From a bacterium (GTDB lineage Bacteria > Patescibacteriota > Patescibacteriia > Patescibacteriales > UBA12465): 64,000 nt of DNA. This document shows positions 2,850 through 53,818 of this stretch, piece after piece. The stretch spans positions 54,529 to 118,528 of the forward strand of contig JAJZRB010000002.1 of assembly GCA_021806615.1 (NCBI GenBank). The letters are read 5' to 3'. Below the pieces are notes generated by a model. It ran no database searches. It had not been told where the DNA came from and saw only the letters and a program-made list of their open reading frames with translations. Numbering within the stretch: position 1 is the first letter of the stretch; every line of letters begins with the position of its first letter. The translations under genes were made by a program, and so were the position numbers.

Positions 2850-2870
2850 TGTCTTAAATTTGAATCGCTT

Positions 2871-4535: not shown

Positions 4536-4539
4536 ACAT

Positions 4540-5799: not shown

Positions 5800-5809
5800 A
5801 ACCTTTACC

Positions 5810-7828: not shown

Positions 7829-7841
7829 TAATTTTAAACAT

Positions 7842-8897: not shown

Positions 8898-8900
8898 TTT

Positions 8901-10058: not shown

Positions 10059-10070
10059 TATCAGATAAAA

Positions 10071-36933: not shown

Positions 36934-36967
36934 GATCGCCGTTTATAATGAGAACGGCGATTTTTTA
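36934..36967 (+). terminator. Rho-independent terminator after the HAD-like gene
   Basis: Stem atcgccgtt / aacggcgat with loop tataatgag, followed by T6. Overlaps the uvrC stop codon on the opposite strand. Confidence 0.75.
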
Positions 36968-38179
36968 TAGATTAAAATTATTTTTTATCCCAGTCCGTGC
37001 CGGCTTAGCTGTCCTTTTCCGTCCGTAATTAGCGAAGCGGTGAGCCTCTTCCCTGACTTTCAAGAGCGTTCCCTTGATATTATCGGCCAGATCGCGCAGC
37101 GGTTTTTTGGTCTTGGCGGCGAAGACTAATTTATCGCCGCTAAATTTGGATATGCCGACGAGGGGCACTTTAATATTGTTAGACTTAAAGATCCGGGAAA
37201 TGAAACTGACCTGCGGCGAGCCGCCGTCGATCATTATCAGGTCAGGAGCCGCCCATTCCGGATGCCGGAAACGGCGCAAGAGAACCTCGCTTAAAGCTCG
37301 TTCATCATCGCCAGCCGGGGCGTCCTTGACCTTAAATAACCGATATTCGCTCCGGGCCGCTTCTCCATTTTCAAAAACGACCATAGAACCATAGCTTTCC
37401 TTGCCGCTTAAGTGAGAGATATCATAGCCCTCTATCCGATTTACTTTATCTTCCCCCAGATCGCCTTCGCGGCTTAAGAGAGAGACGTCTTGCAGATGCC
37501 TGAGAGCCTTTATCTTGTCAGGATTTTCCTTTTTTAGCCGATTGGTCAAGCGTTTTTTTTCGCCCGATAGGAGGAGAATGATGTTATTGATATTCTTCCG
37601 GTAGTCCTCCCGGCTTATCGCGCCGATGCAGGCGCCCGGACATAGGCCGATTTGGTAATCGAAACAAGCGCGGCCGCTATTCGGCGTACAGGTGCTATAG
37701 GGAAAGACGCGCCGGATAAGGCGCAGAGCCGTCTGTAAGAGATGGAACGACTGGTAGGGGCCGAAGATTTTAGCTTGGGAAGATGGAAATTTCTTAAGAT
37801 CCGTAGCGCGAACGATGATCGGCTTGGCATAAGAAGCTTTCGGAATGACAACATAAATAAAAGAACGGTCATCCCGATCTACGATATTGTATTTCGGCCA
37901 GTATTTCTTGATATTTTTCGCCTCTAGAATGACAGCTTCCAAGAGAGTTTCCGTTTCCTCGTATCTGATATCATAAGCGGCAGCGACCATTTCCGCGATG
38001 CGCGGACTGATATTCTTTTGGAGATACTGGCTTAAGCGATCTTTTAGGCGGCTAGCTCGGCCGACATATAATATCGTTCCTTCCTTGTCTAACCAGAAAT
38101 AAATCCCTGGTTTTTTAGGAATCGTTTTTATTTTATCCTTTAGCCGGAGTTTATTTTTTACTGGCGAATTCATAGCCAT
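36965..38179 (-). CDS. uvrC: Excinuclease ABC subunit C, shortened form (404 aa)
   Basis: GIY-YIG domain (PGIYFWLDKEGTILYVGRASRLKDRLSQY) and the C-terminal endonuclease core (RIEGYDISH...DDERALSEVLLRRF...PDLIMIDGGSPQV). No (HhH)2 tail, and the UVR region is absent or vestigial. Confidence 0.85.
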   Translation of the reverse strand: MAMNSPVKNKLRLKDKIKTIPKKPGIYFWLDKEGTILYVGRASRLKDRLSQYLQKNISPRIAEMVAAAYDIRYEETETLLEAVILEAKNIKKYWPKYNIVDRDDRSFIYVVIPKASYAKPIIVRATDLKKFPSSQAKIFGPYQSFHLLQTALRLIRRVFPYSTCTPNSGRACFDYQIGLCPGACIGAISREDYRKNINNIILLLSGEKKRLTNRLKKENPDKIKALRHLQDVSLLSREGDLGEDKVNRIEGYDISHLSGKESYGSMVVFENGEAARSEYRLFKVKDAPAGDDERALSEVLLRRFRHPEWAAPDLIMIDGGSPQVSFISRIFKSNNIKVPLVGISKFSGDKLVFAAKTKKPLRDLADNIKGTLLKVREEAHRFANYGRKRTAKPARTGIKNNFNL

Positions 38180-38468
38180 ATTTTTTCAAATCGATCCAGC
38201 CGTCAATGATTTTGACGCCCTCTTTTTTCAGCATCGCCTGTTTCTTTCCAGAGCCGCCGCCGTAGCCGCCGACCCGTCCGTCAGACTTGATGATCCGGTG
38301 GCAAGGCACTTGTGGCGCAAAGGGGTTATTATGGAGAGCGTTGCCGACGGCCCGGCTGGCTCGCGGCTTATCCAGAGCCCGCGCTACAGCCCGGTAAGTA
38401 GAGATTCTTCCGCGCGGAATACGGGAAATCAGATCATAGACTTGTTTTTGGAAAACGCTCAGTGGCAT
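38151..38468 (-). CDS. ogt: Methylated-DNA-protein-cysteine methyltransferase (Ogt/MGMT), C-terminal-domain-only form
   Basis: Active-site motif VPCHRII, plus the RAVGNAL helix-turn-helix region. Overlaps the uvrC start by 29 nt. Confidence 0.85.
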   Translation of the reverse strand: MPLSVFQKQVYDLISRIPRGRISTYRAVARALDKPRASRAVGNALHNNPFAPQVPCHRIIKSDGRVGGYGGGSGKKQAMLKKEGVKIIDGWIDLKKYGYEFASKK

Positions 38469-38489
38469 AAAGATAATTCAATGAATACA

Positions 38490-39380
38490 TCAGCTGCTCA
38501 AGCCGAGAAGCAGGCTGCAGCCGATAGTGATAATGGCTCCCAGGTATTGCCAGCCGCGGATCTTTTCTTTATTGAAGATAAGCCCGAGGAGCATGGCGAT
38601 CACGATATAAGATTCGGTAATGGAAGCGATTATAGCCAGTTCTCCAGCCTGGGCGATGGAAAAGGAAAACAAGAGCCAGGCTGAGATGTCCACGATAGCC
38701 ATAATCAGGATAAGCCGCCAATAGCGCCGACCGTCGCTCATTACTTGCGGGAAACGGCCTTCGGCCAATAAGTAAGAGAAGCAGATGATACCGCCCAGAG
38801 TCCAGGGGAACCAGATCGCTAACAGCGGGTCGATATTGGCGGAACCGACAGCTGTTAAGAAATTAGTGAAGGCCAATAAGATCGCCGTCAATACGGCGAG
38901 CCAGGTTCCTTTTTCCAGCAGAATTTTGGTTTTTTCCCAGAAGAACCAAAATTGCCGCCGCCGCATTTTATCAAAATCAAGAGAAATCAAAACTACGCCG
39001 GCGAATAATAGGGTGATAACTAAAATCTGGTACAAAGATAAAGAATTTTTAAGAAAGATGATGCCTAAGATAACCGTCAGAGGAAGCTCAAAGAATAGGA
39101 TTATTTCTACTACTGATAATTTTCCGATTTTCAAAGCCTTAAAGTGGGCGATCGCTCCGCCCAGGACGACTAGGCCCAGAATGGCGAAGAGGAGAATCTG
39201 AGAACCATTTAGAGATAAAAATGATTTATAAACCAGGGGCGATAAGAAGATGAAACTGCCCAAGTATATCCACCATAAGGTTTCCAGCCAGCCGATTCTC
39301 TTGATGGTCCTTTGAATAAGAAAATCACCGACACCCCAGCCGACCATCGCTCCAAAAGCGAGAATAATTGCCAGACTCAT
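38490..39380 (-). CDS. EamA/DMT superfamily transporter
   Basis: About 10 TM helices arranged as two EamA-like halves. Confidence 0.8.
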   Translation of the reverse strand: MSLAIILAFGAMVGWGVGDFLIQRTIKRIGWLETLWWIYLGSFIFLSPLVYKSFLSLNGSQILLFAILGLVVLGGAIAHFKALKIGKLSVVEIILFFELPLTVILGIIFLKNSLSLYQILVITLLFAGVVLISLDFDKMRRRQFWFFWEKTKILLEKGTWLAVLTAILLAFTNFLTAVGSANIDPLLAIWFPWTLGGIICFSYLLAEGRFPQVMSDGRRYWRLILIMAIVDISAWLLFSFSIAQAGELAIIASITESYIVIAMLLGLIFNKEKIRGWQYLGAIITIGCSLLLGLSS

Positions 39381-39383
39381 AAA

Positions 39384-41891
39384 TTATTTTAGATATTCTT
39401 TTAAGTATTTCCCGGTCACGCTCTTAGTCTCGCGCGCTATATCTTCTGGCGCGCCAGCGGCGACTAAGCGGCCGCCTTCTTCCCCGCCGTCCGGGCCGAG
39501 ATCGAGGATATAATCCATCGCCTTAAGCATATGCATATTATGTTCAATGACCAGGACCGAATTCCCTTTCTCCACGAGTTTATTGAGAACTGAAAGCAGC
39601 ATATCTATATCATAGTAATGCAGGCCGGTCGTGGGCTCGTCTAATAGGTATAAAGTCCTCTTGCCGAGAGTATGGGTCAATTCCTTGGCGATCTTGATGC
39701 GTTGCGCCTCTCCGCCGGATAAGGTCGTCGCGCTTTGTCCGATTTTAATATAGCCTAATCCGACCGCCTGCAATACGGCCAATTTATCGGTGATGAAGTA
39801 ATTGCCGGAAAAATGTTCGATCGCCTCGTCAATGGTCAGATCCAAGATTTCCGCGATATTTTTCCCCTTATATTTTACCTGAAGAGTTTCTCGGTTAAAG
39901 CGCCGGCCTCTGCAGACCTCGCATTCCACCAAGACCGGAGGCAGGAAATGCATTTCTATCAAGTTAGCGCCAGCGCCGCTGCAGGCTTCGCAGCGTCCGC
40001 CCGGGCGGTTAAAGGAAAAACGCCCGATATTGTAGCCCCTCTCTCGCGACTCCGGCAAAGAGGCGAAAAAATCCCTGATCGGCGTAAAGATCCCGGTATA
40101 AGTCGCGGGATTAGAGCGCGGCGTCCGGCCGATGGGAGATTGATCAATGACGATTATCCGATTGATATATTCCGCTCCTTTTATTTCCGCGACATGCTCC
40201 AGCTTCGGGCGCCCCGGACGGCTCTTTATCTGTAGGAGATTTTTGTACAGTACGTCGTATAAGAGAGATGATTTGCCGCTGCCGGAAACGCCGCTGATAC
40301 CGACCAGGCGGCCTAGCGGTATATCGGCGTTCAAATTTTTGAGATTGTTGGCATGAGCGCCGCGGATCCTCAAAAATCCGTGGTTCTGTTCGCGTCTTTT
40401 AGCCGGCAGGAGGATTTCCTTATCGCCACTCAGGTATTGCAGGGTCAGGGATTTTTTTCTGGACGCTTTATTCTTTTTCTCATCCAGGAGATCTTTGGTC
40501 TCGCCGCTAGCCATGACTTCTCCGCCATGGACGCCAGCCAGCGGGCCGAGATCCACGAGATAATCCGATTCCAAGATAGTCCGTTCGTCATGCTCGACGA
40601 TAATGACCGTATTGTTTTTATCGCGCAGCGCTTTCAAGGTATCTATTAGGCGCTTGGTGTCTCGTTCATGCAGGCCGATGGTCGGTTCGTCCAGCACGTA
40701 TAGGGTGCGGGAGAGATGCGAGCCTATCTGCGAAGATAGGCGGATACGTTGCGCTTCGCCGCCGGACAGGGTCTCCGCTTCTCTTTCCAGGGAAATATAG
40801 TGTAAGCCGACTTTTAAGAGGAATTCCAAGCGGCTGATAATCTGGATAACTACGTTTTCCGCAATCGCTCTTTCTCTCTTCGTCATTTTTTCATAATAAT
40901 GGTTGAAGAAATCCAGCGCTTTATTTATTGGAAGCTGGGTTATTTCCGCGATGTTCTTATTGTTGATCCGGGCCGCGAGAGCCTCCGGGCGGAGACGGCG
41001 GCCACTGCAAGCCGGGCATTTTTCCGCCGAGAAGAAATCAGTCCGCCCTAATCCGCTGCATTCCGGGCAGGCACCATGCGGCGAATTGAAGGAAAATAGA
41101 CGTGGCTCTACTTCCGGGAAAGAAAAATTATCATTCGGGCAGGTCCAATTGGATGACAAGAGGAATTCCTGGTTTTTATATTGGGCGATAACCAGCCCTT
41201 TGCTGTATTCTAAGGAATTTTCTATAGCCTCAAAAAGTCGGGTTTGATCGTCAAGGAGAATTTCGTCTATGATAATATCGATATCGTGTTTTTGCTTGGG
41301 AGCAAGCTTTATAGGTTCTCGTAAAGAATGGATCTTTCCATCCAAGCGGGCTTTACTATAGCCTAGTCCCAGATAATTATATAAAAGCTGATAATATTCG
41401 CCTTTACGATCGCGGACTACGGGCGCCAAGATGATGACGCTCTCTTCTTTAAAATCACGGCCGCGGGAAATGACGATGTCTACCATCTCTTCCACGCTGA
41501 GCTTTTCAATCTTAGTGCCGCAAAGCGGGCAGAAAATATCTCCGACCCTGGCGTAAAGGACGCGGAGATAATCATAAATATCGGTCAATGTCCCGACGGT
41601 AGAGCGCGGGTTGTGCGATAAAGCTTTCTGATCGATGGAAATGGAAGGCGCGAGTCCGATAATCTCATCTACATCGGCCGGTTTTTTTTGCCCTAAGAAT
41701 TGGCGCATATAAGGCGAAAGGGACTCAACATATTGGCGCTGTCCTTCCGCAAAAATAGTATCAAAAGCAAGAGATGATTTGCCGCTGCCGGAAACGCCCG
41801 TCACGACCGTCAGCTTATTATGCGGTATTTCTAAATTTATATTTTTTAAATTGTGCATCCGCGCGCCGCGGATGATCAGTCGTTCGGGCAT
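39384..41891 (-). CDS. uvrA: Excinuclease ABC subunit A (835 aa, lacks the insertion domain)
   Basis: Two ABC modules ([50 protein letters not shown]) and zinc modules. [23 protein letters not shown] joins the two Cys pairs directly. Confidence 0.95.
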
Positions 41892-41894
41892 AGT

Positions 41895-42476
41895 TTAGGC
41901 TGATAAAAAAGGATTAGGCTCGGAGAAGGTAACGCGCGGAATATGATTATTTATATAATCTTCATCCAGGCCGTATTTATTATGGTAAAGGGTAGTAATG
42001 CCGCAGAATAAGGCTTGATTGTAATCAAAACCTAATTGAGCGCTGGCTTTTTTTACGGATTCTTCTGATTTTCCCTCTACTTCCACATATGGCTCAAGAT
42101 AAGGCCATTCGTCTACCGTAATCTCCGCTTCATCAAGCAGCCATAATTCTCGGCGGCTTTCCTGATAGGCCTTTTTCTGGCCGCCGATAGCGTCTAAAAA
42201 ATCAACCGCCTCGGAAAAATTGTCTACTTGCAGGCAGATTTCCGTCTGGTTCTCGATCTTATCGCCATTTATTATCTTCAGGCTCATCGTGATCTTATCC
42301 TGCTCGTCACGGACTCTCAGCCAGCCGCCAGGGATCTCATGGCCGCTGGGCAAGTTGAAGACGACACGTTTTTGCAAGAATTCCGGCTTGGCTAGAGTCG
42401 CTCCGGCCTTTTCCAGGCGCGCGCGGACTTCGTCCTTATTGATATTAGCGAAAGTTGCTTCGTATTCGATAGCCAT
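41895..42476 (-). CDS. CYTH-domain protein (CyaB-type class IV adenylyl cyclase / triphosphate tunnel metalloenzyme)
   Basis: N-terminal EYEATF (ExExK-like), LRVRDE, ITMSLK, and the [14 protein letters not shown] pattern typical of the CYTH beta-tunnel. Confidence 0.8.
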
Positions 42477-42518
42477 ATTTTTCTGTTTTTATTTATCAGA
42501 TTATTTCAAATTTCATGA

Positions 42519-44354
42519 TTATTTTTCGGCGGCATCCAAGAATTCCTCGATTTTCTTGGTGATGTTAACCGGCGTAATGCGGTTCTTCTTGTTATATGCG
42601 ACTTGTTTCTTGCGCCGCCGATCGGCTTCGCGCATCGCCCGGCGCATCCCGCCGGTGATCTTATCGGCGTATAGGATGATCTTCCCCTTGACGTTACGGG
42701 CTGCGCGGCCCATGGTTTGCATCAAAGAAGTCTCGCTGCGCAAGAAACCCTCGCGGTCGGCATCCAGGATAGCCACTAAAGTAACTTCCGGCAGGTCTAG
42801 GCCTTCGCGCAATAGATTGACCCCGATTAGTACATCGAATTCTCCTAAACGGAAATTTTTCAGGATTTCCGTCCGTTCGAAGGTTTTGATGTCGGAATGG
42901 AGATAGTTAGAACGGAAACCTTTGGCGTTAAGATAGGCATTGAGGTCCTCTGCCTGTTTTTTGGTCAGAGTATTGATTATCGCCCGCTCGCCTAAGGCGG
43001 CCGTTTTCTTAACTTCCGCCATGACATCGTTTATCTGGCTGTAATTCTTAATCTTATCAAAAACCGGCCGGATTTCAATAAGGGGGTCTATCAAGCCGGT
43101 CGGACGGATTACTTGTTCGACAATCTGTTCGGAATGATTATTCTCAAATTCTCCCGGCGTCGCTGTCGTAAAAATTATCGGTCCGATCCGTTTTTCAAAT
43201 TCATTGAATTTCAGAGGACGATTATCCAGGGCGGATGGCAAGCGCCAGCCATATTGGACTAAGGTTTTTTTCCTGGCCTGGTCGCCGTTATACATGCCCC
43301 TTATCTGTGGCAAGGAAATATGCGACTCATCGATAATCGTCAGGAAATCCGGCGCGCCATCTTTCCAAGGGAAATAAGCTAACAAGGAATCAGGCGCTTC
43401 CCCGGCCAATTTTCCCGTTAAATGACGCGAATAATTTTCAATGCCATGGCAATAACCTAGTGTCCGCAGCATCTCCATATCATATCTCGTCCGTCTTTCG
43501 AGGCGTTCTGCTTCCAGCAATAAGCCTTCTTTCTTAAAATAAGCCAAGCGTTCCTTCAGCTCCTCTTGGATATTCTTGATGGCGGACGTTATTTGCGGCT
43601 GGGTAGACACAAAATGTTTCGGTGGGAAGACGACCATTTCTTCTAAGCGATCAATGATATTCTTGGTCGTATTGTCAATTACCGATAGTTCAGAGATCTT
43701 CTGCTCCCTCAGCTCTAATCGATAGATGATATTTTCCGACATGGGCCTGATTTCAAAAACGTCGCCACGCACCCTGAATCCGCCGCGATTGATCTCTCCG
43801 TTAGTCCTGACGAATTGGATCCTTATCAGCTGTTTAATCAGATCCGCGCGGACCATAGGCTTCCCTTTCTCCAGGACCAGGCGGGATTCCAAATAAGTGA
43901 TCGGCACCCCGAGATTATAGATGCAGGAAACAGAAGCGACGATGATTACGTCGCGGCGGGAAACTAAAGCCGAAGTAGCGCCATGGCGCAAGCGGTCGAT
44001 TTCCTGGTTGATCATCGCCTCTTTGTCAATATAGGTATCCGTTATCGGCAAGTAAGCCTCCGGTTGGTAATAATCGTAATAGGAAACGAAATAATGGACC
44101 GCGTTGTCGGGAAAGAAATTCTTATATTCGCGGTATAGCTGGGCGGCCAGAGCTTTATTGGGGGCGATGACGAGAACCGGCTTATCCAGCTCCTTGATGA
44201 TGTTGGCGACGGTAAAAGTTTTACCTGATCCGGTTACGCCTAAAAGAGTTTGGTAGCGGAAGCCGGCATCTAGGCCATGGAGCAGTTTCTTAATCGCGGC
44301 CGGCTGATCGCCGGCTGGCTGGAAATTAGCTTGTAATCTGAATATCTTAGACAT
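42519..44354 (-). CDS. uvrB: Excinuclease ABC subunit B (611 aa, no C-terminal UVR domain)
   Basis: GVTGSGKTFT, DESH, GRAARN helicase motifs. The protein ends about 12 aa after the ITP..I.KKI segment. Confidence 0.95.
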   Translation of the reverse strand: MSKIFRLQANFQPAGDQPAAIKKLLHGLDAGFRYQTLLGVTGSGKTFTVANIIKELDKPVLVIAPNKALAAQLYREYKNFFPDNAVHYFVSYYDYYQPEAYLPITDTYIDKEAMINQEIDRLRHGATSALVSRRDVIIVASVSCIYNLGVPITYLESRLVLEKGKPMVRADLIKQLIRIQFVRTNGEINRGGFRVRGDVFEIRPMSENIIYRLELREQKISELSVIDNTTKNIIDRLEEMVVFPPKHFVSTQPQITSAIKNIQEELKERLAYFKKEGLLLEAERLERRTRYDMEMLRTLGYCHGIENYSRHLTGKLAGEAPDSLLAYFPWKDGAPDFLTIIDESHISLPQIRGMYNGDQARKKTLVQYGWRLPSALDNRPLKFNEFEKRIGPIIFTTATPGEFENNHSEQIVEQVIRPTGLIDPLIEIRPVFDKIKNYSQINDVMAEVKKTAALGERAIINTLTKKQAEDLNAYLNAKGFRSNYLHSDIKTFERTEILKNFRLGEFDVLIGVNLLREGLDLPEVTLVAILDADREGFLRSETSLMQTMGRAARNVKGKIILYADKITGGMRRAMREADRRRKKQVAYNKKNRITPVNITKKIEEFLDAAEK

Positions 44355-44359
44355 TTTAA

Positions 44360-45577
44360 TCAGCTTAATTCTAATTTCTGTTCCACTAATCTCAGGTCGT
44401 CTTCGCTGAGCCCGGCTCCTTCGCCTTTATTCCGGCGGCAGTCTATGATCAAGATAAGATAGGCGGCTAATCCGAAAATTCCTGCGGCTAGAAAAGGAAG
44501 ATTTGTTTTTAATCCGAATAGATAGCCAGCCATGATCGGGCCGGAAATCAAGCCTAATGACATGACTGAATTCAGGACACCGAGAATCATGCCTCTGTCG
44601 TCGCCAGCGCCTCGTCTGGTCATCTCGCTGGTAATGACCGCCCTTAAGACCGACTGCGCTATAGCGACGAAGGCCAGACCGAAGGAAAAAATCAAGAAAT
44701 AAGTTATGCCCATAAGGAAAAAGCCGGCGGCTAATAGGAGCGTCAGCCAGACGATCAAGAATCTCTCTTTAAAGTATCTGAGCCAGATTTTCTTCAAAGC
44801 GAAACCTTGATTAATGATTAAAATAAGCCCCATCGCCGTCATGACTAGGCCGACCATGAGAGAATTAAAATCAAATTCAGCATTCAGATAAAGGGCCATG
44901 ATGGATTGCTGGCTGGCTATAGCTACGCTGAATAAGAACCAGGCGATAAAGCCGAGGCGCAGGCTTTTATTATTCAAAGCGCCGAGCAAGGGCTTGAAGG
45001 GGTTGATCTCTATCTTTTTATCCAATCTTCTATTCTGATTAGTCTCCGGAATATTCATTAGAGCGAGGACGAAGTTTATAGAAGCTAAGCCGCCGACAAA
45101 CCAGAAAGGAAAATCTAAAGCCCAGGCGCTGAGCAGGCCGCCGAGAGCCGGTCCGATGATCAAGCCGACGCCGAAGACAGCCCCGATGAGCCCTAAGTTG
45201 GAGGTTCTTTCTTTATCGTCCTTGGCAATGTCTAAAAGATAGCTTTGAGCGATAGGAAAATTTCCGGCCGCCGCGCCGTCGATTATCCGTCCTAAGAATA
45301 GGAAGAATAAATTACCGGCCGCCGCGAATACCAGCCAGCCCAAGGCTGTGCTGAAAATACTGATTATCAGTACCGGCCGCCGTCCGATTTTGTCCGACCA
45401 AGCGCCCAGGAGCGGCGCGCTGAAGAAAGAAAAGAATGAATAAGTCGCAAATAGCAGGGTGACGACAAAAGCCGAGGCGCCGAAAGATTCCACATAAAAA
45501 GGCAGGATGGGCAAGATGATACCCATGCCCAAAACATCTATGAAAACCGTCAGTAAAATGATGAATTTTTTATTCAT
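44360..45577 (-). CDS. MFS transporter (drug:H+ antiporter / Tet-like)
   Basis: 12 TM helices. MFS motif A GAWSDKIGRRPVL. Only 5 nt upstream of uvrB. Confidence 0.9.
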   Translation of the reverse strand: MNKKFIILLTVFIDVLGMGIILPILPFYVESFGASAFVVTLLFATYSFFSFFSAPLLGAWSDKIGRRPVLIISIFSTALGWLVFAAAGNLFFLFLGRIIDGAAAGNFPIAQSYLLDIAKDDKERTSNLGLIGAVFGVGLIIGPALGGLLSAWALDFPFWFVGGLASINFVLALMNIPETNQNRRLDKKIEINPFKPLLGALNNKSLRLGFIAWFLFSVAIASQQSIMALYLNAEFDFNSLMVGLVMTAMGLILIINQGFALKKIWLRYFKERFLIVWLTLLLAAGFFLMGITYFLIFSFGLAFVAIAQSVLRAVITSEMTRRGAGDDRGMILGVLNSVMSLGLISGPIMAGYLFGLKTNLPFLAAGIFGLAAYLILIIDCRRNKGEGAGLSEDDLRLVEQKLELS

Positions 45578-45597
45578 TGGCAGGTAAAAATAGCTAG

Positions 45598-45621
45598 ATT
45601 ATGATTATATATTATCATAAT
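45598..45621. promoter_or_regulatory. Inverted repeat ATTATGAT-N8-ATCATAAT overlapping the likely -10 region of the MFS-uvr operon
   Basis: Perfect 8-bp arms 21 nt upstream of the MFS start codon. A TATAAT on the minus strand lies inside it. The AT-rich context makes a chance occurrence plausible. Confidence 0.3.
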
Positions 45622-45647
45622 ACGCCTGGCTTAAAAAGAAAAATAGA

Positions 45648-45671
45648 AGAGCCCGGGATAACCCGGGCTCT
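45648..45671 (-). terminator. Rho-independent terminator after the surface-protein gene
   Basis: Perfect 10-bp stem agagcccggg / cccgggctct with loop ataa. The minus strand continues with a U-rich tract. Confidence 0.85.
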
Positions 45672-45685
45672 TGGAATAGGCTCGT

Positions 45686-48190
45686 TTATTTGCTCGCGCC
45701 GCTATAGGCTATGGCTCTTACGATATTCCAGGCCAGAGGGCTTATCGGAGAATGAGCATAAACAGCTCGGAAAGATTTTATAGCCTGCTTCTCGCTGGCG
45801 GTATTACGGGAGCTTGGCCTTAAACCGTAGGCGATGATGGTTACGGCGTTAGCATCATGGCTGTCCTTCATGTCGGCTGGCCGATCATAGACTTTCAGGA
45901 ATTCCGCTTTAGCGCCGGTTTCCGCTTTAGCGCTAGTTTCTCCCGGCCAGCGTCCAGAAGATATTTTCAATATATCAGACCACTCCGCAGCGGTTTGCGG
46001 CAATTTGCTATAAGCTTGCAAATAAGATCCGAGAACGCCAGCTCGTTCGCCCGCCCCTAATTTCAAAGTGCTAGGCGTGCCATAAACGACGAAATAATCA
46101 AGATTATTTATTTCTGCCGCGCCCAATTTAACTTTAGTCAGCAGCGGATCGACATAACGGCTTAAGTAAGATGTCTCCAGTGAAGCATTCTTTACGGCGG
46201 ATACATCATTCAGGATCGAATTGACATCGCCGCCATCAAGGATATCGGCCTCCCGGGTGATTTTTTGCAGCAAGTCGTCGGATCCCGCGTGAGTATCCGC
46301 ATTACCTGGATTGGAGTTGTCCGAAGAATCAGAAGACGGTTGTAGTTCAACTTTGACTGATAATGAATTACAGCTATTGGTAGCGGCGCAAACCGTGATG
46401 ACGGTCGATCCTATATTTTTCCCTAAAACGATTAAATTGCCGCCGTTGATGCTGGCCTGGACCATCGTGGGATTAGAATTGGCAGAAATATAATAATTGC
46501 TGTTAGCCCCGCCTGAAACAGCGACGGACAGGCTTTCCCCGACTCCGATAGCCGGATTAGATCGGCTGAAAGCGAGCGGAGCATTGGAAGTATTATTTGA
46601 TGATACGGCGGCATAAATTATGCCGCATTGGCCGCCATTCTGGCAGATAGTCGCGTTGGCATTACCCGAGCTGAGAGCCTTGACCGTTATTTTGTTGTTA
46701 TTCAAGACGAAGGACGCGACGTTCTGGTTGTTGCTGCTGGAAATATAATATCCGCCTGCCCCGAATAGAGAGACATCAGTCGATCCGCCGACGTTCAGAG
46801 TCAAGTTGTTATTGCTGAAAGTCAATTGCGTGCTAGAACTGACGCCGTTGACCAGGACCGATAACTGGACGCAAGCTCCGGCCGCCGAACAGACGTCCAA
46901 ATTGCCTGAGCCCGCCCCGACTCCGGTCAAGGTCAGGATATTATTGTTAAGGCTGGCTTGGAAAATCGCGTTGTTTTTTGAATCATTACTCAGGCTATAA
47001 GGAAAAGTCCCGCCGGAAACGGTAACGCTCACCGCTTGGCCGACCTGTAGCCATAAGTTATTCTGGCTGAGGCTTATCGGTCCGCTCGTAGAGTAGCTGA
47101 CCGTCGCCGTTATGGATCCGCAATTGCCATTATTAGCGCAGACCGTAATGATTGATGATCCGGCGCTTCCGCCCGTCAATGCCAGGTTATTGGTATTAGT
47201 GATCGTGGCTGTGACGACGCTGGAATTAGAGTTGGAAGAGATACTATAGCTGCTGCCTCCGGAAATGAGAATATTTAAATTCTGGCCGATGAGCAAGGAG
47301 GGATTAGTCTGGTTAAAAACCAAGGAAGAAGAACTGGTCGTGCCGGCGCTCGCGTTGATTATGCCGCAAGAGCTCATATTAACGGCGCAGACCGTAATAG
47401 CGGCGGTACCGCTCGTATTGTTAGCGTTCAAAGTTATCGTTGAACCGCTGAGCGAAGAAGATATCACGCTCGGGTTGGAATTATTCAATATCGTATAATT
47501 GCCCGTGCCGTTCAATATGGAAACCGTAGAGCTCTGCCCATAAGCGATGGTCAGGTTGGTCTGGCTGAAAGTCAGAGCTTGGGCGCCGGAATTCTGGACG
47601 GTCAGATAGGTGCTCGCGCAATTAGAGGTGGTTCCGAGAGCGCAGAGAGTGACGACGGTTTGCCCATAAGCATTGGCGATCAGGGTAATCTGGTTGTTAT
47701 TGATATTGACGTTAGCTATTTGTGGATTGGAATTATTCAGGAGATAAAGAGGTTGGCCGCTATTATTGGTAACGGACAAGGTTGAGGTTTGCCCGACGGT
47801 CAGGACCAATCCCGTTTGGTTAATGGTAATGGCGCCGCCTGAAGCCAGGGTATTATAAGGCCAGGCGACAGAGCTTGAAGAAGCATTATTTATCTTGACG
47901 TAGACGGAGCTATTCGGAGCAATGCCGTAGGTAGCCGTGCTGACGGTCATGCTTAGAGATCCGCTGGCGTTTGTCTTCCCTAAGACATCCAGATAGGCCG
48001 CGCCGCTATTCTTCTGGTAATATATCAGGACGCTGGCATTAGGATCGCCCGTTACGTTTATTTGGACATTATCGCCATCGCCGGTACTGCTGAGCGCCAG
48101 CGTCGGAGCCGCCGCGCGCGCCGCGTTTAGGGAGGCCAAGAAAATAAAAGCGACCGCGACCAGCGAAACGAAGAATAGATTTTTTTTCAT
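45686..48190 (-). CDS. Secreted surface protein with six Ig-like (Big_2-like) repeats and an unknown C-terminal domain
   Basis: Signal peptide with AxA site (LNAARAAAP). S/T/N-rich repeats. The C-terminal roughly 220 aa have no recognised motif. Confidence 0.8.
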   Translation of the reverse strand: MKKNLFFVSLVAVAFIFLASLNAARAAAPTLALSSTGDGDNVQINVTGDPNASVLIYYQKNSGAAYLDVLGKTNASGSLSMTVSTATYGIAPNSSVYVKINNASSSSVAWPYNTLASGGAITINQTGLVLTVGQTSTLSVTNNSGQPLYLLNNSNPQIANVNINNNQITLIANAYGQTVVTLCALGTTSNCASTYLTVQNSGAQALTFSQTNLTIAYGQSSTVSILNGTGNYTILNNSNPSVISSSLSGSTITLNANNTSGTAAITVCAVNMSSCGIINASAGTTSSSSLVFNQTNPSLLIGQNLNILISGGSSYSISSNSNSSVVTATITNTNNLALTGGSAGSSIITVCANNGNCGSITATVSYSTSGPISLSQNNLWLQVGQAVSVTVSGGTFPYSLSNDSKNNAIFQASLNNNILTLTGVGAGSGNLDVCSAAGACVQLSVLVNGVSSSTQLTFSNNNLTLNVGGSTDVSLFGAGGYYISSSNNQNVASFVLNNNKITVKALSSGNANATICQNGGQCGIIYAAVSSNNTSNAPLAFSRSNPAIGVGESLSVAVSGGANSNYYISANSNPTMVQASINGGNLIVLGKNIGSTVITVCAATNSCNSLSVKVELQPSSDSSDNSNPGNADTHAGSDDLLQKITREADILDGGDVNSILNDVSAVKNASLETSYLSRYVDPLLTKVKLGAAEINNLDYFVVYGTPSTLKLGAGERAGVLGSYLQAYSKLPQTAAEWSDILKISSGRWPGETSAKAETGAKAEFLKVYDRPADMKDSHDANAVTIIAYGLRPSSRNTASEKQAIKSFRAVYAHSPISPLAWNIVRAIAYSGASK
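46346..47830 (-). repeat. Six in-frame tandem repeats of about 82-85 aa
   Basis: Repeat starts at aa 121, 206, 290, 372, 456 and 539. Each ends in a Cys-x5-7-Cys loop (TLCALGTTSNC, TVCAVNMSSC, TVCANNGNC, DVCSAAGAC, TICQNGGQC, TVCAATNSC). Confidence 0.75.
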
Positions 48191-48308: not shown

Positions 48309-48758
48309 CTATTCTTTGCCTCCTTCCTCCGGCAGGCTGATTTTCTCCAAGAGCCTGATGAACTCCCGGAGTTCATCCGCTTGGAAAGAGGAGAAGGCCG
48401 CGCTTAGAGATTTAAAATAATCCCGTCGGAACAGATTTATTTTTTTCCTGGCGCTAGGAGTAAATTTTATGCTAATAATACGCCTATCTCTAGGGTCCTC
48501 TTCCCTTTTCACTATCTTTTTATTTACTAGAGTATCGGTGAATTGGGTAATAGCTCCCGGTGTCACTTTCAGAAATTTAGATAATTCCTTGATAGCCACC
48601 CCGTCTTTTTTATCAGCCATAAAAAACAGGATCATCGCCTCTGGCCGGCTCAATTTTATCTGGCCGAAAGGAAAATTATGGCCAGAATGGATCTTTTTTA
48701 AAGTTTGGCCGAATTTTTCCAGCAAGGTCTGCAATAATTGTTGCTTATTAGTATCCAT
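48309..48758 (-). CDS. MarR family transcriptional regulator
   Basis: Winged-helix core IKELSKFLKVTPGAITQFTDTLVNKKIVKREEDPRDRR. Confidence 0.85.
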   Translation of the reverse strand: MDTNKQQLLQTLLEKFGQTLKKIHSGHNFPFGQIKLSRPEAMILFFMADKKDGVAIKELSKFLKVTPGAITQFTDTLVNKKIVKREEDPRDRRIISIKFTPSARKKINLFRRDYFKSLSAAFSSFQADELREFIRLLEKISLPEEGGKE

Positions 48759-48790
48759 AGTTGAGAAAATTATGGGGATAAAATATAAAT

Positions 48791-50044
48791 CTATTCATGG
48801 CTTAGAGCTTCAATCGGGTCTAATCTGGCGGCGCTCCTTGCCGGCAGGACTCCAAAGCCGATGCCGATGACTGCGGAAACGCCGAAACCTAGAGCGATAG
48901 CGTACCAAGGGACAGAAAAAATCCAGGCCAGGCCGTTAGCCGAAGCAATAACCGCGACCAGCCAGCCTAAAGCGCTGCCCAGTAAAATGCCGATAGCGCC
49001 GCCAAGAATGGTGACCATGATTGATTCGATTAAGAATTCTCTTAAAATATCAGAGTTCTTAGCGCCCAAGGCTTTTTTCAAACCGATTTCCGCTGTCCGT
49101 TCCGTGACGACCACGTACATGATGTTCATGATGCCGACCCCGCCGACAATGAGCGAAATGGCGGCGATGGCGATTAAAAGGATAGTGATGCCATTGAAAA
49201 TAGTATTGAAAGTATCCATGGCCTGAGCTTGGGTCTGGACGATGAAATCATCCTTATCGGGGTTGGTGATATTGTGGTTACGACGCAAGACTGCTTTTAT
49301 GTTTTCTGCGGTAGATTCGCTCAAATTGACGTCCTGGACCTGGACGATACCGAATAAGAGATAATCAATACCCAGTATTTTTTTCTGCGCGGTAACCAGC
49401 GGGATATACATCATTTCGTCGCCGCTGCCGCTCAGAGCCCCTAAAGGGTTATAGACTCCGATTACTTGGAAATTCAAGTCGCCTAAGCGGATCAGTTTTC
49501 CCAAGGGATCATTATTCCCGAATAGATCCTGGGCCAGTTTGCTCTCTAAAATGGCAACTTGGGCCGCCCCGCTGTCTTCTTGGGCGCTGAAGAAACGACC
49601 GGATTTTAAAGTGTTCTTATCGATTTCAAAGCGGGCGGCGGAAGCGCCATAGAATAAGACGCTCTTGCTAACATCGCGATAACTGGCTACCTTCTGGCCG
49701 ACGACCATGCCGTAGTCGTTAACGACGTTATTCAATTTTTTGATATCTTCTAAATCACGGTTTTTCAAAGTCGTAATGGCGATTGCGGAAGCGGCGCGAC
49801 CCGTGTCGGCGCTCGCTACTCCGGCGCCGCGGTTTTTTGTAGTTGGCGGGACGCGTGTCTCTAGGAATAAAGTATTAGTGCCATAGGCCTGCAATTGGGA
49901 ATCAATCAGGCTGCGGAATCCCGCGCCGGCCGACAATACCAAGATAACCGTAGCGATGCCGATCATAATCCCTAGCGTCGTCAGTATCGTACGCACTGGG
50001 TTAGCCAAGAGAACTTTGCTAGATTGTCGGAAAGCTTGATACAT
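48791..50044 (-). CDS. ABC transporter permease, MacB/FtsX type (paralog 2)
   Basis: N-terminal TM, a roughly 230-aa extracytoplasmic MacB_PCD-like domain, and a C-terminal FtsX 3-TM bundle ending LDPIEALSHE. Confidence 0.9.
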   Translation of the reverse strand: MYQAFRQSSKVLLANPVRTILTTLGIMIGIATVILVLSAGAGFRSLIDSQLQAYGTNTLFLETRVPPTTKNRGAGVASADTGRAASAIAITTLKNRDLEDIKKLNNVVNDYGMVVGQKVASYRDVSKSVLFYGASAARFEIDKNTLKSGRFFSAQEDSGAAQVAILESKLAQDLFGNNDPLGKLIRLGDLNFQVIGVYNPLGALSGSGDEMMYIPLVTAQKKILGIDYLLFGIVQVQDVNLSESTAENIKAVLRRNHNITNPDKDDFIVQTQAQAMDTFNTIFNGITILLIAIAAISLIVGGVGIMNIMYVVVTERTAEIGLKKALGAKNSDILREFLIESIMVTILGGAIGILLGSALGWLVAVIASANGLAWIFSVPWYAIALGFGVSAVIGIGFGVLPARSAARLDPIEALSHE

Positions 50045-50049
50045 ATTGA

Positions 50050-51318
50050 TTATTCGTAACGCAGAGCTTCAATCGGGTCTAATTTGGCGGCCTTAAAAGC
50101 CGGATATAGGCCAAAAATTATGCCGGTGAGTATAGAAACGCCGACAGCGAGCATGATAGATTTCAAAGAGACGACGAAAGACCAGTCATAGCCTAAATAT
50201 TTCATCAGCAAAGATATAAGATATGACGCGATCACCCCGACGACTATGCCGGCTAGGCCGCCTAAGCTGGTCAAAAAGCTGGCCTCGAATAGGAATTGAT
50301 TGCGGATGGTGCTATTAGTCGCCCCGACGGCTTTACGCAAGCCGATTTCTCGCGTCCTCTCGCCGACCGTGACCATCATGATGTTCAGGATCCCGATCCC
50401 GCCGACTACTAGCGAAATAGCCGCCATAGCTGTTAAGAACAGCCGCAGAGCATCAGTAATAGTAGATAGCATGCTAATGGCGTTAGCAATATTGCGCACC
50501 GTATAATCCACTTGGTCTTCAGTCCTGATGCGGTGTCTCTGGTTCAATACGGTTTTAATATCGTTGATCGTCGGATCAATGTTAGCATCGGAGTCTACCT
50601 TGATATTGATAGCTTGCAAATAGTGGATGCCGAGAACCTGCTGTTGGCCGATAGTCAGGGGCATGAAGATCTGGTCATCTTGATCTTGGAAGAAAGAAGC
50701 GCCGCGTGGCGCCACGACGCCGATGACGCGCAAAGGGATACCTCCGGCTTCGGTATTGTTAGCGCTTTTTACTTTTATTATCTGTCCGAGCGGACTCAAG
50801 CCTGTCCCGCCGAACAGTTCGTCAGCGACGGTCGCGCCTAGAACGGCGACATTGGCATTACCCTGATCTTCTTGGGAATTATAGAATTGTCCTGATTGCA
50901 TGGTAATATTGACGACCTTCGGATAATACGAGTCGCTGCCGACGAAATTAGTATCCACGGTCTTATTGCCCCAAGTCACGGTCGCTGTGCCACGGACATT
51001 GGCGTTAACGGCTAAAGCGTGCGGCAGCGATCCGTCGCGCAAGGCGGCGGCGTCGCCGTTAGTAAGCGTGGTTATGACGATGCCGAATATCTGGGCGGGC
51101 GGCCCTTTTTCATTGCTTTTTCCCGGCTGGACGCTTAAGAGGTCCGAGCCGAGCTTAGTCACTTGTCCCAAGATCAAGCTCTGTGCTCCGGCGCCAAGAG
51201 CGATAATAATAATGACGCCAGCGACGCCGATAACGATGCCGAGTATAGTCAAAAGAGAGCGCCCTTTTCTCGCCCGTAAATTCTTGATAACCAGCCTGAT
51301 GGTGGAAACGAGATTCAT
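50050..51318 (-). CDS. ABC transporter permease, MacB/FtsX type (paralog 1)
   Basis: Same architecture as the neighbouring permease, ending [10 protein letters not shown]. Confidence 0.9.
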
Positions 51319-51340
51319 TTTTTTGTTTATTAAACGAACC

Positions 51341-52057
51341 TTATTTAATGAGTTCTTTATCGGCGCTGGCGATAGTCCGGTCTTTTACTTTGTCGTCGGA
51401 AATAAGACTGCCGTCTTTGATCCTGATGATCCTTTTGGCGTGGTTGGCCGTATCTGTCTCATGGGTGACGAGGATTATCGTCCGCCCCTGCTCATTCAAT
51501 TGTTGGAGGATATACATGACTGTATTGCCTGATTTGGAGTCTAGATTGCCAGTTGGCTCATCGGCGAAGATAACGGCCGGATCGCAGACTAACGCTCGGG
51601 CGATAGCCACGCGCTGTTTTTCGCCGCCGGAAATCTGATTAGTATAATAGTCTAGTCGGTGGGACAGTCCGACTGAGCTCAAGGCCTTTTTAGCCAAAGC
51701 ATCATGATTTTTCTTTTGGCTGTAGATCAGGGGCAATTTTACATTGTCCAAGACGGTCGTCCGAGGCAATAGGTTGAAAGACTGGAAGACGAAACCGATC
51801 CGTTCATTACGCAGCCGGGCTAAATAGTCATCGTTAAAATCTTTAGTGTCTTCGCCGTCGAATTCATATAAGCCGGCTGACGGTCTGTCTAAAAAGCTCA
51901 GAATATGCATCAAAGTAGACTTGCCGCTGCCCGATGGCCCCATAATCGCTACGAATTCTCCTTGGTCAATGGTAAAGCTCAAGTCATGCAGGACGGGCGT
52001 CGTCACTCCGTCGCTCCCGTAAGTTTTTTTAAGATTGGCAACTTTTATCAGATTCAT
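51341..52057 (-). CDS. ABC transporter ATP-binding protein (MacB/LolD family)
   Basis: [41 protein letters not shown]. Confidence 0.95.
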
Positions 52058-52060
52058 AGA

Positions 52061-53818
52061 CTATTGTTTGATATAAGTGACTATTTCCTGGCCTTCTTCC
52101 AGGCCGGAGACAACTTCCATCAAGCCGCCATCGGCCTGCAAACCGGTTTGGATGGATATCTCATGATATGTCTTCGTATCTTTATTATCAATGATACGGA
52201 CATACTGTTTCCCGTCGCGGCTGATGACAGCGCCACTCGGGATAGCTAGAGCGCTATCTTTGCGCGCCACCAGGATAGTCATATTGGCGGTCATGCCCGG
52301 CTTTATCTCCGGTATATTGGGAAAATCGGCTTTGACTAAATAATCCACTACTCCGGAAATGACTGTAGACGCCGGATCAATAGTCATTATTTTCCCGCTG
52401 AAATGGCGATCCGGCCCCAGAGCGTCAAAAGTATAGTCTACTGATTGCCCGGGCTGGAGATAAGCGACGTTGGCTTCGCTCACGTAAGCCTCGACATGCA
52501 AGGCATTGATATCCTGGAGAACCATCACTTCCTGCATGGCAGTAGCTTGTTCGCCGACTTTAGTGTCAACTTGGGTGATAGTGCCATCCGCCGGCGCTTT
52601 AAGAATGGTGTTAGCCAGGGAGGCTTGAGCGGCGTCTACTTGTCCCTGGGCTGATAGAATCTGCGCTTTGGCAGAATTTATATCGGCCGGTTGAGCTTTA
52701 GCTTTTAATTGAGATAAGGTAGCTTGCGCTTGCAAAAGAGCGGCATGAGCGCTATTGATCTGATTTTGAGCGGTCGTTTTCTGCTGTACGGCCGATAAAT
52801 TAGCGTTAGTAACAGCGTTTTGAGCTGTCGTCAAAGCGTTAGAGAGGGCTTGCTGAGCTCCTCTGATAGAAGAGACCCCGGAATTTTCAGAAGTCAATTC
52901 CCCATTAATGGCTGATTTATAAGCGTCTAATTGGGCTTGGCTTATCTTTGAACTGGTCACTGAATTCTGCAGAGCGGAAAAACAATAAGTTAAAGAGCTG
53001 ATGCTTTGGTTCAGCGCCGCAATGGCATCATTGGCTGCTTGGCTGATATTGGCGTCGCTTTTATAGGCCTGCATCGTCGCTAAACTTAAATTGGCTGCAT
53101 TCAGAAGAGGCTGGACTTGCTTATAGGCGTTCTGGAAATTCACTGCCTCGTTATTATTAGAAACACTGAACGTATCTTTCAGGTTATTGTCATTTAAGAT
53201 CTGATTCTCCTTATCTATGGCGGATTGGATAGAGGCCAGCTGGTTAGCTATGGCCGTGACGATAGCCGTACGTTTATTGTCAGATTGGGTGGTGGGAGAC
53301 TGCAAATCATCCAAAGTCGCCTGCGCTTGGCTGACAGCGGCGGCGGTCGATTGTTCGATGGTCGTTAATTGATTCAAGGCATTATTATAAGCGACCTGGG
53401 CCGAATTTACGGATTTTTCAGAGACGTTTACCTGTTCCGGAGTTGCGCCGGCTAAGACACGCTGGTAATTGGCCTGCGCCTGAGCCAAGCTTCCCTGAGC
53501 GCTGACTAAGGCGGCTTGGGCGTTCGCTTGGTTGAAGATAGCGAGGACATCTCCGGCCTTGACCTTGCTGCCGGCCGCCACGTTGACTTCTTTGACGACA
53601 CCGCTTCCTTGGAAGCTCAGATTCAGATTAAGGGCGCTTACTACCTGCCCGGTCGTAAGAACGGTCTGTTCCAGGTTCTGTCTGGCGACCGTAGCGGTCT
53701 GGATATTAGCTGGCGCATTCTTTCCTTTATTGATGAAGTACCAAACGCCGCTGGCGAGCACTAAGATAATGATCGTCCAGACGACCGTCTTTTTAGTAAA
53801 AAATTTTCTGATGTTCAT
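52061..53818 (-). CDS. HlyD/MacA-type membrane fusion (periplasmic adaptor) protein with greatly extended coiled-coil hairpin
   Basis: N-terminal TM. Lipoyl-like half (GDVLAIF), about 310 aa of A/Q/N/S-rich helical sequence, second lipoyl half (ILKAPADGTITQV), then beta-barrel and MP domains. Confidence 0.85.
   Translation of the reverse strand: MNIRKFFTKKTVVWTIIILVLASGVWYFINKGKNAPANIQTATVARQNLEQTVLTTGQVVSALNLNLSFQGSGVVKEVNVAAGSKVKAGDVLAIFNQANAQAALVSAQGSLAQAQANYQRVLAGATPEQVNVSEKSVNSAQVAYNNALNQLTTIEQSTAAAVSQAQATLDDLQSPTTQSDNKRTAIVTAIANQLASIQSAIDKENQILNDNNLKDTFSVSNNNEAVNFQNAYKQVQPLLNAANLSLATMQAYKSDANISQAANDAIAALNQSISSLTYCFSALQNSVTSSKISQAQLDAYKSAINGELTSENSGVSSIRGAQQALSNALTTAQNAVTNANLSAVQQKTTAQNQINSAHAALLQAQATLSQLKAKAQPADINSAKAQILSAQGQVDAAQASLANTILKAPADGTITQVDTKVGEQATAMQEVMVLQDINALHVEAYVSEANVAYLQPGQSVDYTFDALGPDRHFSGKIMTIDPASTVISGVVDYLVKADFPNIPEIKPGMTANMTILVARKDSALAIPSGAVISRDGKQYVRIIDNKDTKTYHEISIQTGLQADGGLMEVVSGLEEGQEIVTYIKQ

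Follow-up and report, generated by a model that had tools for sequence, protein, structure and literature searches.

The closest described counterparts of the uvr locus reported here are the uvrBA genes of Firmicutes, which form a LexA-regulated operon (PMC4234289), and a 'uvrABC operon' mentioned for Clostridioides difficile (PMC4689574). Within the UvrABC system, UvrA makes many of its DNA contacts through the insertion domain, domain 4 of UvrB auto-inhibits the ATPase and must contact UvrC for 3' incision, and the helix-hairpin-helix (HhH)2 domain of UvrC is required for 5' incision (PMC7835731). A further group, the class IIa UvrAs DrrC and Ecm16, is without the Zn1 module and the UvrB-binding domain and acts without UvrB or UvrC (PMC9328131). 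The locus examined here lies in a 64,000-nt window (the whole stretch of DNA that was analyzed) of contig JAJZRB010000002.1, where seven minus-strand genes follow each other head to tail at positions 36965-45577: a gene for a major facilitator superfamily (MFS) transporter, uvrB, a CYTH gene, uvrA, an EamA transporter gene, an ogt-like gene and uvrC. With a probability of roughly 0.7, this locus is a lineage-typical uvrBAC cluster for nucleotide excision repair (NER) in Falkowbacteria-type Patescibacteria, in which four variable genes are lodged at the 5' end and in two internal slots and in which the Uvr proteins are streamlined.

In 5' to 3' order the seven genes are separated by 5, 42, 3, 3 and 21 nt, followed by an overlap of 29 nt. 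This spacing, given in a first-pass annotation that was made from the sequence alone, was borne out exactly by the open reading frame (ORF) coordinates, and the seven gene identities proposed there were confirmed by Pfam and NCBIfam profile matches (Table 1). For comparison, the window proteins were mapped by tblastn onto 80 species-representative loci, which are the nearest relatives by UvrA (54-88% identity), and the counts of uvr gene order refer to judgeable loci; an additional metagenome contig, L087, was included. For UvrC and CYTH, the nearest homologs came, like the 80 UvrA loci, from metagenome-assembled genomes of Patescibacteria (the candidate phyla radiation, CPR), most of them labelled Falkowbacteria, with Komeilibacteria and Buchananbacteria as the more distant members among the loci.

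A same-strand uvrB upstream of uvrA was present at 63 of 68 judgeable loci and a same-strand uvrC downstream of uvrA at 67 of 71, and 57 of the 63 species-level genomes that could be judged have the complete uvrB-uvrA-uvrC order. The uvr core was spread across the whole neighbour-joining tree of UvrA. Because this arrangement on one strand is shared by 57 of 63 genomes and throughout this tree, the uvrBAC linkage is a lineage trait and not chance, and its retention despite turnover of the intervening genes points to selection for linkage. The earlier statement that uvr genes are unlinked in well-studied bacteria thus stands for E. coli but does not extend to the lineage of the window. The gene order is also not unique to this genome, as a synteny survey across relatives recovered all seven genes in order in L003 and L072 and six in L001, while L087 carries MFS-uvrB-CYTH-uvrA-ogt-uvrC with gaps of at most 30 nt. 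Extension of the linkage to all CPR fails: a distant short uvrC (P0261) is not beside uvrA or uvrB, and on the contigs of P0179 and P0261, which belong to lineages that keep the UVR motif of UvrC, uvrB does not adjoin uvrC.

All three Uvr proteins of the window are 50-200 amino acids (aa) shorter than their canonical counterparts, a feature on which the first-pass annotation had not remarked. The UvrA retains two ATP-binding cassette (ABC) ATPase modules with invariant Walker A residues (G37-K38-S39 and G539-K540-S541). Its UvrB-binding domain (PF17760) lies at residues 132-238 (82.9 bits) and was present in 54 of 54 relatives; Cys121, Cys124 and Cys251 are conserved, and the zinc cysteines are invariant. 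The insertion domain is missing. Residues 284|285 of the window protein join residues 305|421 of PDB entry 9gxk, a deletion of approximately 115 aa that is likewise evident against 2r6f and 3pih. In all 69 relatives the two CxxC pairs of Zn module 2 lie only 8-31 aa apart, and PF17755, the family of the insertion domain (UvrA_DNA-bind), was not among the 25 most frequent families listed for the 54 scanned UvrA members. In UvrB, the SF2 helicase core and domain 2, through which UvrA and UvrC are engaged, are complete, with matches to PF17757, PF04851, PF00271 and PF12344, and K45 and the beta-hairpin tyrosines Y92, Y93, Y95 and Y96 are invariant across the clade. Domain 4, the C-terminal coiled-coil UVR domain, is absent: the profile match (positions 2-597) ends at position 597 of 653, the protein aligns to residues 5-598 of PDB UvrB chains of 658-661 aa, and UVR (PF02151) was detected in the UvrB of one of 53 clade members.

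The reduction is most extensive in the domain census of UvrC (Pfam, n = 64), in which GIY-YIG (PF01541) and the RNase-H-like PF08459 were present in 64 of 64 clade members, while UVR (PF02151, E<=0.01), the first RNase-H-like domain (PF22920) and HhH were found in 0 of 64. Five canonical UvrCs (592-631 aa) scanned alike as controls showed all five domains. Distant short UvrCs (35-38% identity, ~415 aa) still carry the UVR motif, so that PF22920 and HhH must have been lost earlier and more widely than UVR; the disappearance of a detectable UVR motif from UvrC coincides with that of its partner, domain 4, from UvrB. The remaining domains appear intact. The GIY-YIG catalytic residues Y27, Y38, R48, E86 and N98 are invariant, as are C172, C180 and C184 in a four-cysteine region behind the GIY-YIG domain, presumably a metal or Fe-S site, whose fourth residue C164 is conserved in at least 90%. 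The PF08459 domain scored 121.9 bits with an invariant D-D-H triad (D253, D318, H380), and the protein ends 12 residues past the region aligned to 2nrr. An AlphaFold2 (AF2) model of UvrC with a mean predicted local distance difference test score (pLDDT) of 78 matched 2nrt, 2nrr and 8b0q, and 1yd6/1ycz with template modelling (TM) scores of 0.82-0.86. Among the nearest 150 relatives, drawn from 1.84 billion cluster representatives, short forms of ~385-460 aa dominate down to 35% identity. A Cho identity was rejected for this protein, which scored 59.7 bits against NF007833 (cut-off 367) and contains the 5' nuclease domain. Short homologs (P0030, P0033, P0060, P0097 and others) are named 'GIY-YIG nuclease family protein' by NCBI and excinuclease ABC subunit C by JGI, and owing to the former name automated reconstructions may wrongly score CPR genomes as being without uvrC.

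On this sequence evidence, the coordinated clade-wide domain loss in UvrA, UvrB and UvrC is best described as a streamlined UvrABC variant. Catalytic and metal-binding residues, including the Walker lysines and zinc cysteines, are invariant over 53-69 sequences and mean column identity is 52-67%, which argues for purifying selection; the shortened genes thus appear to be conserved working genes and not remnants. No description of this reduced architecture was found in the open-access literature on CPR UvrC or NER, on UvrA without the insertion domain or on UvrC without UVR and HhH. The three proteins would perform damage search, verification and dual incision in their reduced form. Because domain 4 of UvrB and the UVR motif of UvrC are both absent, UvrC must dock in another way, and it may bind the UvrB-DNA pre-incision complex independently of domain 4, as E. 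coli Cho does. In work by Moolenaar et al. of 2002, Cho is said to incise with UvrB*, a UvrB without domain 4, in E. coli.

The uvrA-uvrC slot holds, at 15 of 80 loci in several clades, the ogt-like gene. The best sequence matches of the window protein are to Ogt and the C-terminal domain of Ada (Ada-C), and among the PDB matches are the Ogt structure 4bhb (60 bits) and the alkyltransferase-like proteins (ATLs) 2kif (residues 6-100) and 3gva. The N-terminal domain is lacking, as the match begins at residue 6 compared with residues ~76-96 in PDB Ogt and Ada-C chains. The active site reads VPCHRII in the window, and all 12 orthologs keep PCHR, from which the protein is predicted to be a true suicide methyltransferase. 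An ATL identity was rejected: the acceptor cysteine is conserved, and only the single-domain size is ATL-like. The junction between ogt and uvrC measures -35 to +4 nt at 12 of 12 loci, and this invariably tight junction is the most constant accessory link of the cluster. The distance between uvrA and ogt is 197-1175 nt at 11 of these 12 loci and 1 nt in L033. From this arrangement, ogt and uvrC are probably translationally coupled. The single-domain Ogt would reverse O6-alkylguanine.

The uvrB-uvrA slot is occupied by a CYTH gene in the window and at 11 of 80 loci, with a patchy distribution. The AF2 model of this triphosphate tunnel metalloenzyme (TTM; pLDDT 94) shows the eight-stranded tunnel fold, and Foldseek superposed it on 3n10, 7nsf and 2dc4 (TM 0.65-0.71), matches that include the Yersinia class IV adenylate cyclase and a Sulfolobus TTM; thiamine triphosphatase was superposed as well, with TM 0.6-0.7 over the matches. 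Tunnel residues E4, E6, R54, R56, K67, E106, R109, E110, D122, E123 and E132 are invariant, and in place of ExExK the signature is ExExT (E4-Y-E6-A-T8), the Thr at the Lys position being invariant. The family comprised 1364 detected members, and all those named among the 120 listed were Patescibacteria or Parcubacteria. A NUDIX gene occupies the same slot at 4 of 80 loci and in L088, where the order is uvrB-NUDIX-CYTH (L088:5565-6576), and in L023:2036-9362 NUDIX, Ppx/GppA, HD_3/YfbR-like, MazG and CYTH genes all lie between uvrB and uvrA. In one genome, CYTH is not near the uvr genes at all but is flanked by genes for an HD hydrolase and Maf (L086:5063-7206). These occupants (CYTH, NUDIX, MazG, HD_3) suggest that the slot tends to collect nucleotide hydrolases, with exporters being occasional, and CYTH is a putative triphosphate or nucleoside triphosphate hydrolase of the nucleotide house-cleaning kind (cf. 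NUDIX, MazG, HD/YfbR). In L052:5685-9745 and L055:3786-7812 the slot holds an opposite-strand block of ~4-5 kb that encodes an ArsR-like regulator, a permease, thioredoxin-like proteins and membrane proteins. Blocks of this size indicate that the slot tolerates large insertions.

The two transporters are rarer. An EamA gene was present at 5 of 80 loci only (L001, L003, L005, L010 and L072), which constitute the shallow clade of the window, and this accessory gene entered the uvrA-uvrC slot recently. An MFS ortholog directly 5' of uvrB was found at 3 of 80 loci (L003, L072 and L036) and otherwise only on L087. A Tet pump identity was rejected for the MFS protein, which is Tet-like yet falls well short of every Tet cut-off; with a best score of 207 bits, against the Tet(A/B/C) model (cut-off 475), it can only be called a generic member of the drug:H+ antiporter 1 (DHA1)-like group. 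Elsewhere, a 590-aa ABC exporter (L046, uvrA-uvrC slot), NYN proteins and membrane proteins of no known family were found in the slots. The four non-uvr genes are therefore variable fillers (Ogt 15/80, CYTH 11/80, EamA 5/80, MFS 3/80 plus L087) with a patchy or shallow distribution on the UvrA tree, and the MFS and EamA pumps would be recent passengers.

The transcription of the block was considered from spacing and consensus scans (Table 1). At the 5' boundary, the terminator of the upstream 834-aa gene is strong, as the first-pass annotation had proposed, and -10-like elements lie just 3' of it: TATGATAAT at 45619-45611 and an exact TATAAT at 45609-45604, 27 nt 5' of the MFS ATG. Many relatives have a T run followed by TATG.TA.AAT 5' of uvrB, the same layout as that 5' of the window MFS gene. 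No -35 element was found by the promoter scan near 45598-45621. Both -10-like elements are enclosed by a 24-nt palindrome, ATTATGAT-AATATATA-ATCATAAT, at 45621-45598, in which the 8-nt AATATATA is the spacer. The palindrome could be an operator or merely AT-rich promoter sequence; the operator assignment was not adopted, given that it is AT-rich, overlaps the -10 elements and was not seen 5' of uvrB in relatives. A shared LexA-type operator 5' of uvrB (or MFS) was not recognised in ~50 relatives, whose recurrent sequences were limited to terminators, T runs and promoter-like TATG.TA.AAT elements.

At the 3' boundary, the hairpin described earlier is present between the convergent uvrC and HAD genes; read on the minus strand it is preceded by an A run, and read on the plus strand it is followed by a T run. 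Because the T run is on the plus strand, the hairpin primarily serves as the terminator of the HAD gene; it may work in both directions and is likely the 3' end of the seven-gene block. The longest gap in the block is 42 nt, and a consensus scan detected no terminator-like site in its six gene junctions. Most likely, a single transcript would run from the -10-like elements (~45620-45604) to the hairpin (36961-36935). The proposal of one transcription unit is thus compatible with the compact spacing, but in L003, L005 and L072 an opposite-strand gene (190-216 aa) lies between uvrB and CYTH, which indicates that co-transcription of the whole block is not a conserved requirement.

The first-pass annotation had read the linkage as a dedicated, co-regulated module in which the pumps export genotoxins and UvrABC mends the damage that these cause, so that the pumps are functionally tied to UvrABC. 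Such a module is weakly supported, and we consider it distinctly improbable. Its appeal rests on the recurrence of three unrelated exporter families in or against the uvr cluster across genomes, namely MFS 5' of uvrB (window, L003, L072, L036, L087), EamA (window and five loci) and ABC (L046), on the drug:H+ antiporter type of the MFS protein and on a gene spacing compatible with co-transcription. More than 85% of the cluster-bearing species are nevertheless without exporters, EamA is limited to one shallow clade and the block is split by the opposite-strand gene in three relatives; conservation covers uvrB-uvrA-uvrC and not the exporters. There is no regulator within the block, and pumps are common nearby anyway, as in the MacB-type operon at 48791-53818. 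The analogy with anthracycline producers, which had been drawn in favour of a functional link, fails: DrrC and Ecm16 are class IIa proteins, whereas the window UvrA keeps PF17760, the UvrB-binding domain that is absent from these resistance UvrAs, and passes the UvrA equivalog cut-off. A class IIa identity (DrrC/Ecm16/UvrA2) was rejected on the same domain and on the presence of Cys121, Cys124 and Cys251.

Several observations weigh against the reading of the locus as a lineage-typical uvrBAC cluster with streamlined proteins, and some of them would be expected if the genes were merely adjacent in a small, dense genome, with several internal promoters (e.g. for MFS alone, uvrB-CYTH-uvrA and ogt-uvrC) and no shared regulation. 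The 80 loci represent the nearest UvrA relatives and not all Patescibacteria. Many relatives have 150-420 nt of non-coding DNA between uvrA and uvrC, with -10-like hexamers in 12 of 22 such spacers in a crude terminator and promoter scan, and the cluster may be two units there; similarly, the uvrA-ogt gap is wide in 11 of 12 ogt-bearing relatives while ogt-uvrC stays tight. A weak promoter-like site (9/12 matches) at 44395-44368, inside the 3' end of the MFS gene and just 5' of uvrB, could provide uvrB with its own transcription start. In the AF2 model, UvrC keeps a short helical hairpin (residues 208-232) at the position of UVR, which might be a vestigial contact element. Tight spacing by itself is not special, since co-directional runs with gaps of 3-22 nt are the rule in the window, e.g. 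at 357-10928 (plus strand) and 48791-53818 (minus strand). Mere adjacency is nonetheless unlikely: the gaps of the window block are all at most 42 nt, without a terminator-like hairpin, and 57 of 63 species have held on to uvrB-uvrA-uvrC in this order and on one strand although the genes in between are replaced often. It is far less credible that the shortened Uvr proteins are in decay or have been co-opted, for instance as parts of a defence system, and no longer form a working excision-repair machine. All three proteins are without modules on which full activity depends in E. coli (PMC7835731), the UvrC homologs carry only a generic nuclease name at NCBI, and the C-terminal half of UvrA (residues 510-830) matches the PADLOC model mad3, a UvrA-like MADS component, with 275 bits. 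No other MADS component was found by PADLOC, which otherwise returned only generic helicase and ABC matches, so that the mad3 match most likely reflects shared ancestry with UvrA; an anti-phage defence function was rejected on these generic matches and the half-length of the mad3 match. Furthermore, more than 60 species have intact ORFs with invariant Walker, zinc, beta-hairpin tyrosine, GIY-YIG and D-D-H residues, UvrA, UvrB and UvrC all score above the NCBIfam equivalog cut-offs, and the boundaries of the losses are the same across the clade, consistent with an old, stable architecture and not with ongoing decay.

Given a lineage-typical uvrBAC cluster with streamlined proteins, it may be asked how the reduced proteins would work together. 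We tentatively propose, with the odds somewhat against it, a naturally minimised excinuclease that would detect damage with no insertion domain and cut on both sides with no handshake between domain 4 and UVR and no (HhH)2, the partner motifs having been lost together; the uvrBAC linkage and the UvrC-coupled, ATL-sized Ogt would compensate. If true, linkage and Ogt coupling would give coordinated synthesis and assembly and would pass O6-alkyl lesions directly on to excision. Work on E. coli, Bacillus and Thermotoga holds the insertion domain, domain 4, the UVR motif and (HhH)2 to be necessary for contacting DNA, for regulation and for the two incisions (PMC7835731). A natural minimal system in a large bacterial group that has long conserved the catalytic cores without these parts could therefore reveal which UvrABC contacts are truly essential, and its three small proteins, being a defined set, would lend themselves to reconstitution and structural studies. 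As an operon the locus changes little, being a repair cluster that is a lineage trait with pumps as passengers; its kind is ordinary, and what makes it interesting is that the UvrABC proteins are streamlined and that ogt, where present, is constantly paired with uvrC.

Table 1. Features of the seven-gene uvr block and its surroundings, in window coordinates.
Feature	Position	Strand	Basis
Hairpin between convergent uvrC and HAD genes	36935-36961	.	9-bp stem ATCGCCGTT/AACGGCGAT, 9-nt loop
uvrC, 404 aa (402 aa from second ATG)	36965-38179	-	TIGR00194, 295.8 bits (cut-off 285.45)
Single-domain O6-alkylguanine-DNA alkyltransferase (ogt-like), 105 aa, overlaps uvrC	38151-38468	-	PF01035 (MGMT DNA_binding_1), 108.8 bits
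EamA/DMT (drug/metabolite transporter) gene, 296 aa, uvrA-uvrC slot	38490-39380	-	PF00892, 84 bits, two repeats
uvrA, 835 aa, class-I-like	39384-41891	-	NF001503, 1182 bits (cut-off 1147)
CYTH / triphosphate tunnel metalloenzyme, 193 aa, uvrB-uvrA slot	41895-42476	-	PF01928, 33.7 bits
uvrB, 611 aa	42519-44354	-	NF003673, 909 bits (cut-off 743)
MFS transporter, 405 aa, DHA1 drug:H+ antiporter-like	44360-45577	-	PF07690/MFS_1, 164 bits
Promoter-like region	45598-45621	-	Read from sequence; putative function
Intrinsic terminator of upstream 834-aa gene, 5' block boundary	45647-45672	-	11-bp stem, 8 GC pairs, 4-nt loop, T run
834-aa Ser/Asn/Thr-rich repetitive protein	45686-48190	-	N-terminal signal-like sequence, faint T2SS-T3SS_pil_N match
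Terminator of MacAB-MarR run	48306-48281	-	Terminator scan
MarR-family regulator gene	48309-48758	-	After MacAB-type operon
MacB_PCD/FtsX permease	48791-50044	-	MacAB-type operon
MacB_PCD/FtsX permease	50050-51318	-	MacAB-type operon
ABC ATPase	51341-52057	-	MacAB-type operon
HlyD-family adaptor	52061-53818	-	MacAB-type operon

Beyond the block, the minus strand 5' of it carries a MacAB-type efflux operon followed by a MarR gene (48309-53818 in the window). The 834-aa protein encoded between this run and the block is probably a surface protein, and it is partly conserved 5' of uvrB in L001 (60% identity). At Buchananbacteria loci, a tRNA-like sequence (GGGTATATAGCTCAGCTGGTTAGAGCA...) lies immediately 5' of uvrB (L061, ~7800-7869; L060). 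With respect to the relatives themselves, GTDB representatives with near-identical Patescibacteria gene content (L001, L005, L009-L012 and others) are titled 'uncultured Gammaproteobacteria bacterium' (TPA), L023 is titled Planctomycetota and L039 archaeon; such record titles are evidently unreliable.

The locus can be compared with several known systems. It encodes the same three-protein UvrABC system as B. subtilis and C. difficile, and uvrB precedes uvrA as it does, immediately, in the Firmicutes. Unlike the uvrBA genes of Firmicutes or the dispersed genes of E. coli, the lineage of the window has a same-strand uvrC after uvrA and interleaved unrelated genes; the window block also differs from the Firmicutes operon in having no recognised LexA box and in the domain reduction of all three Uvr proteins. 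With the class IIa proteins (DrrC, Ecm16 and D. radiodurans UvrA2), the window UvrA shares a UvrA-family ABC ATPase architecture of ~840 aa and a gene position near exporters, but it has lost the insertion domain instead and sits between uvrB and uvrC. A parallel to the nucleotide hydrolases (CYTH, NUDIX, MazG, HD_3) in the uvrB-uvrA slot is provided by the mfd-mazG operon of Mycobacterium tuberculosis, in which an NER-pathway gene and a nucleotide pyrophosphohydrolase gene stand together (bioRxiv 10.1101/2020.02.10.941963); there the repair gene is mfd, not uvrB or uvrA, and the hydrolase family is also different from CYTH.

The nearest functional likenesses are to E. coli UvrB* with Cho and to the ATLs. 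As in the former, the window lineage combines a UvrB without the UVR domain with a GIY-YIG nuclease that would work without UVR-UVR contact. The window UvrC differs from Cho in keeping the catalytic RNase-H-like 5' nuclease domain, and the UvrB truncation differs from UvrB* in being genomic and clade-wide, not proteolytic. The ATLs, represented by S. pombe Atl1, E. coli YbaZ and V. parahaemolyticus Atl, are similarly single-domain proteins of ~105 aa that correspond to the C-terminal domain of MGMT, but they are defined by a missing acceptor cysteine, whereas the window Ogt retains PCHR. ATLs hand alkyl lesions to NER, a recruitment cited in PMC7835731 (reference 108), and the window Ogt is genetically tied to the same pathway through the ogt-uvrC junction.

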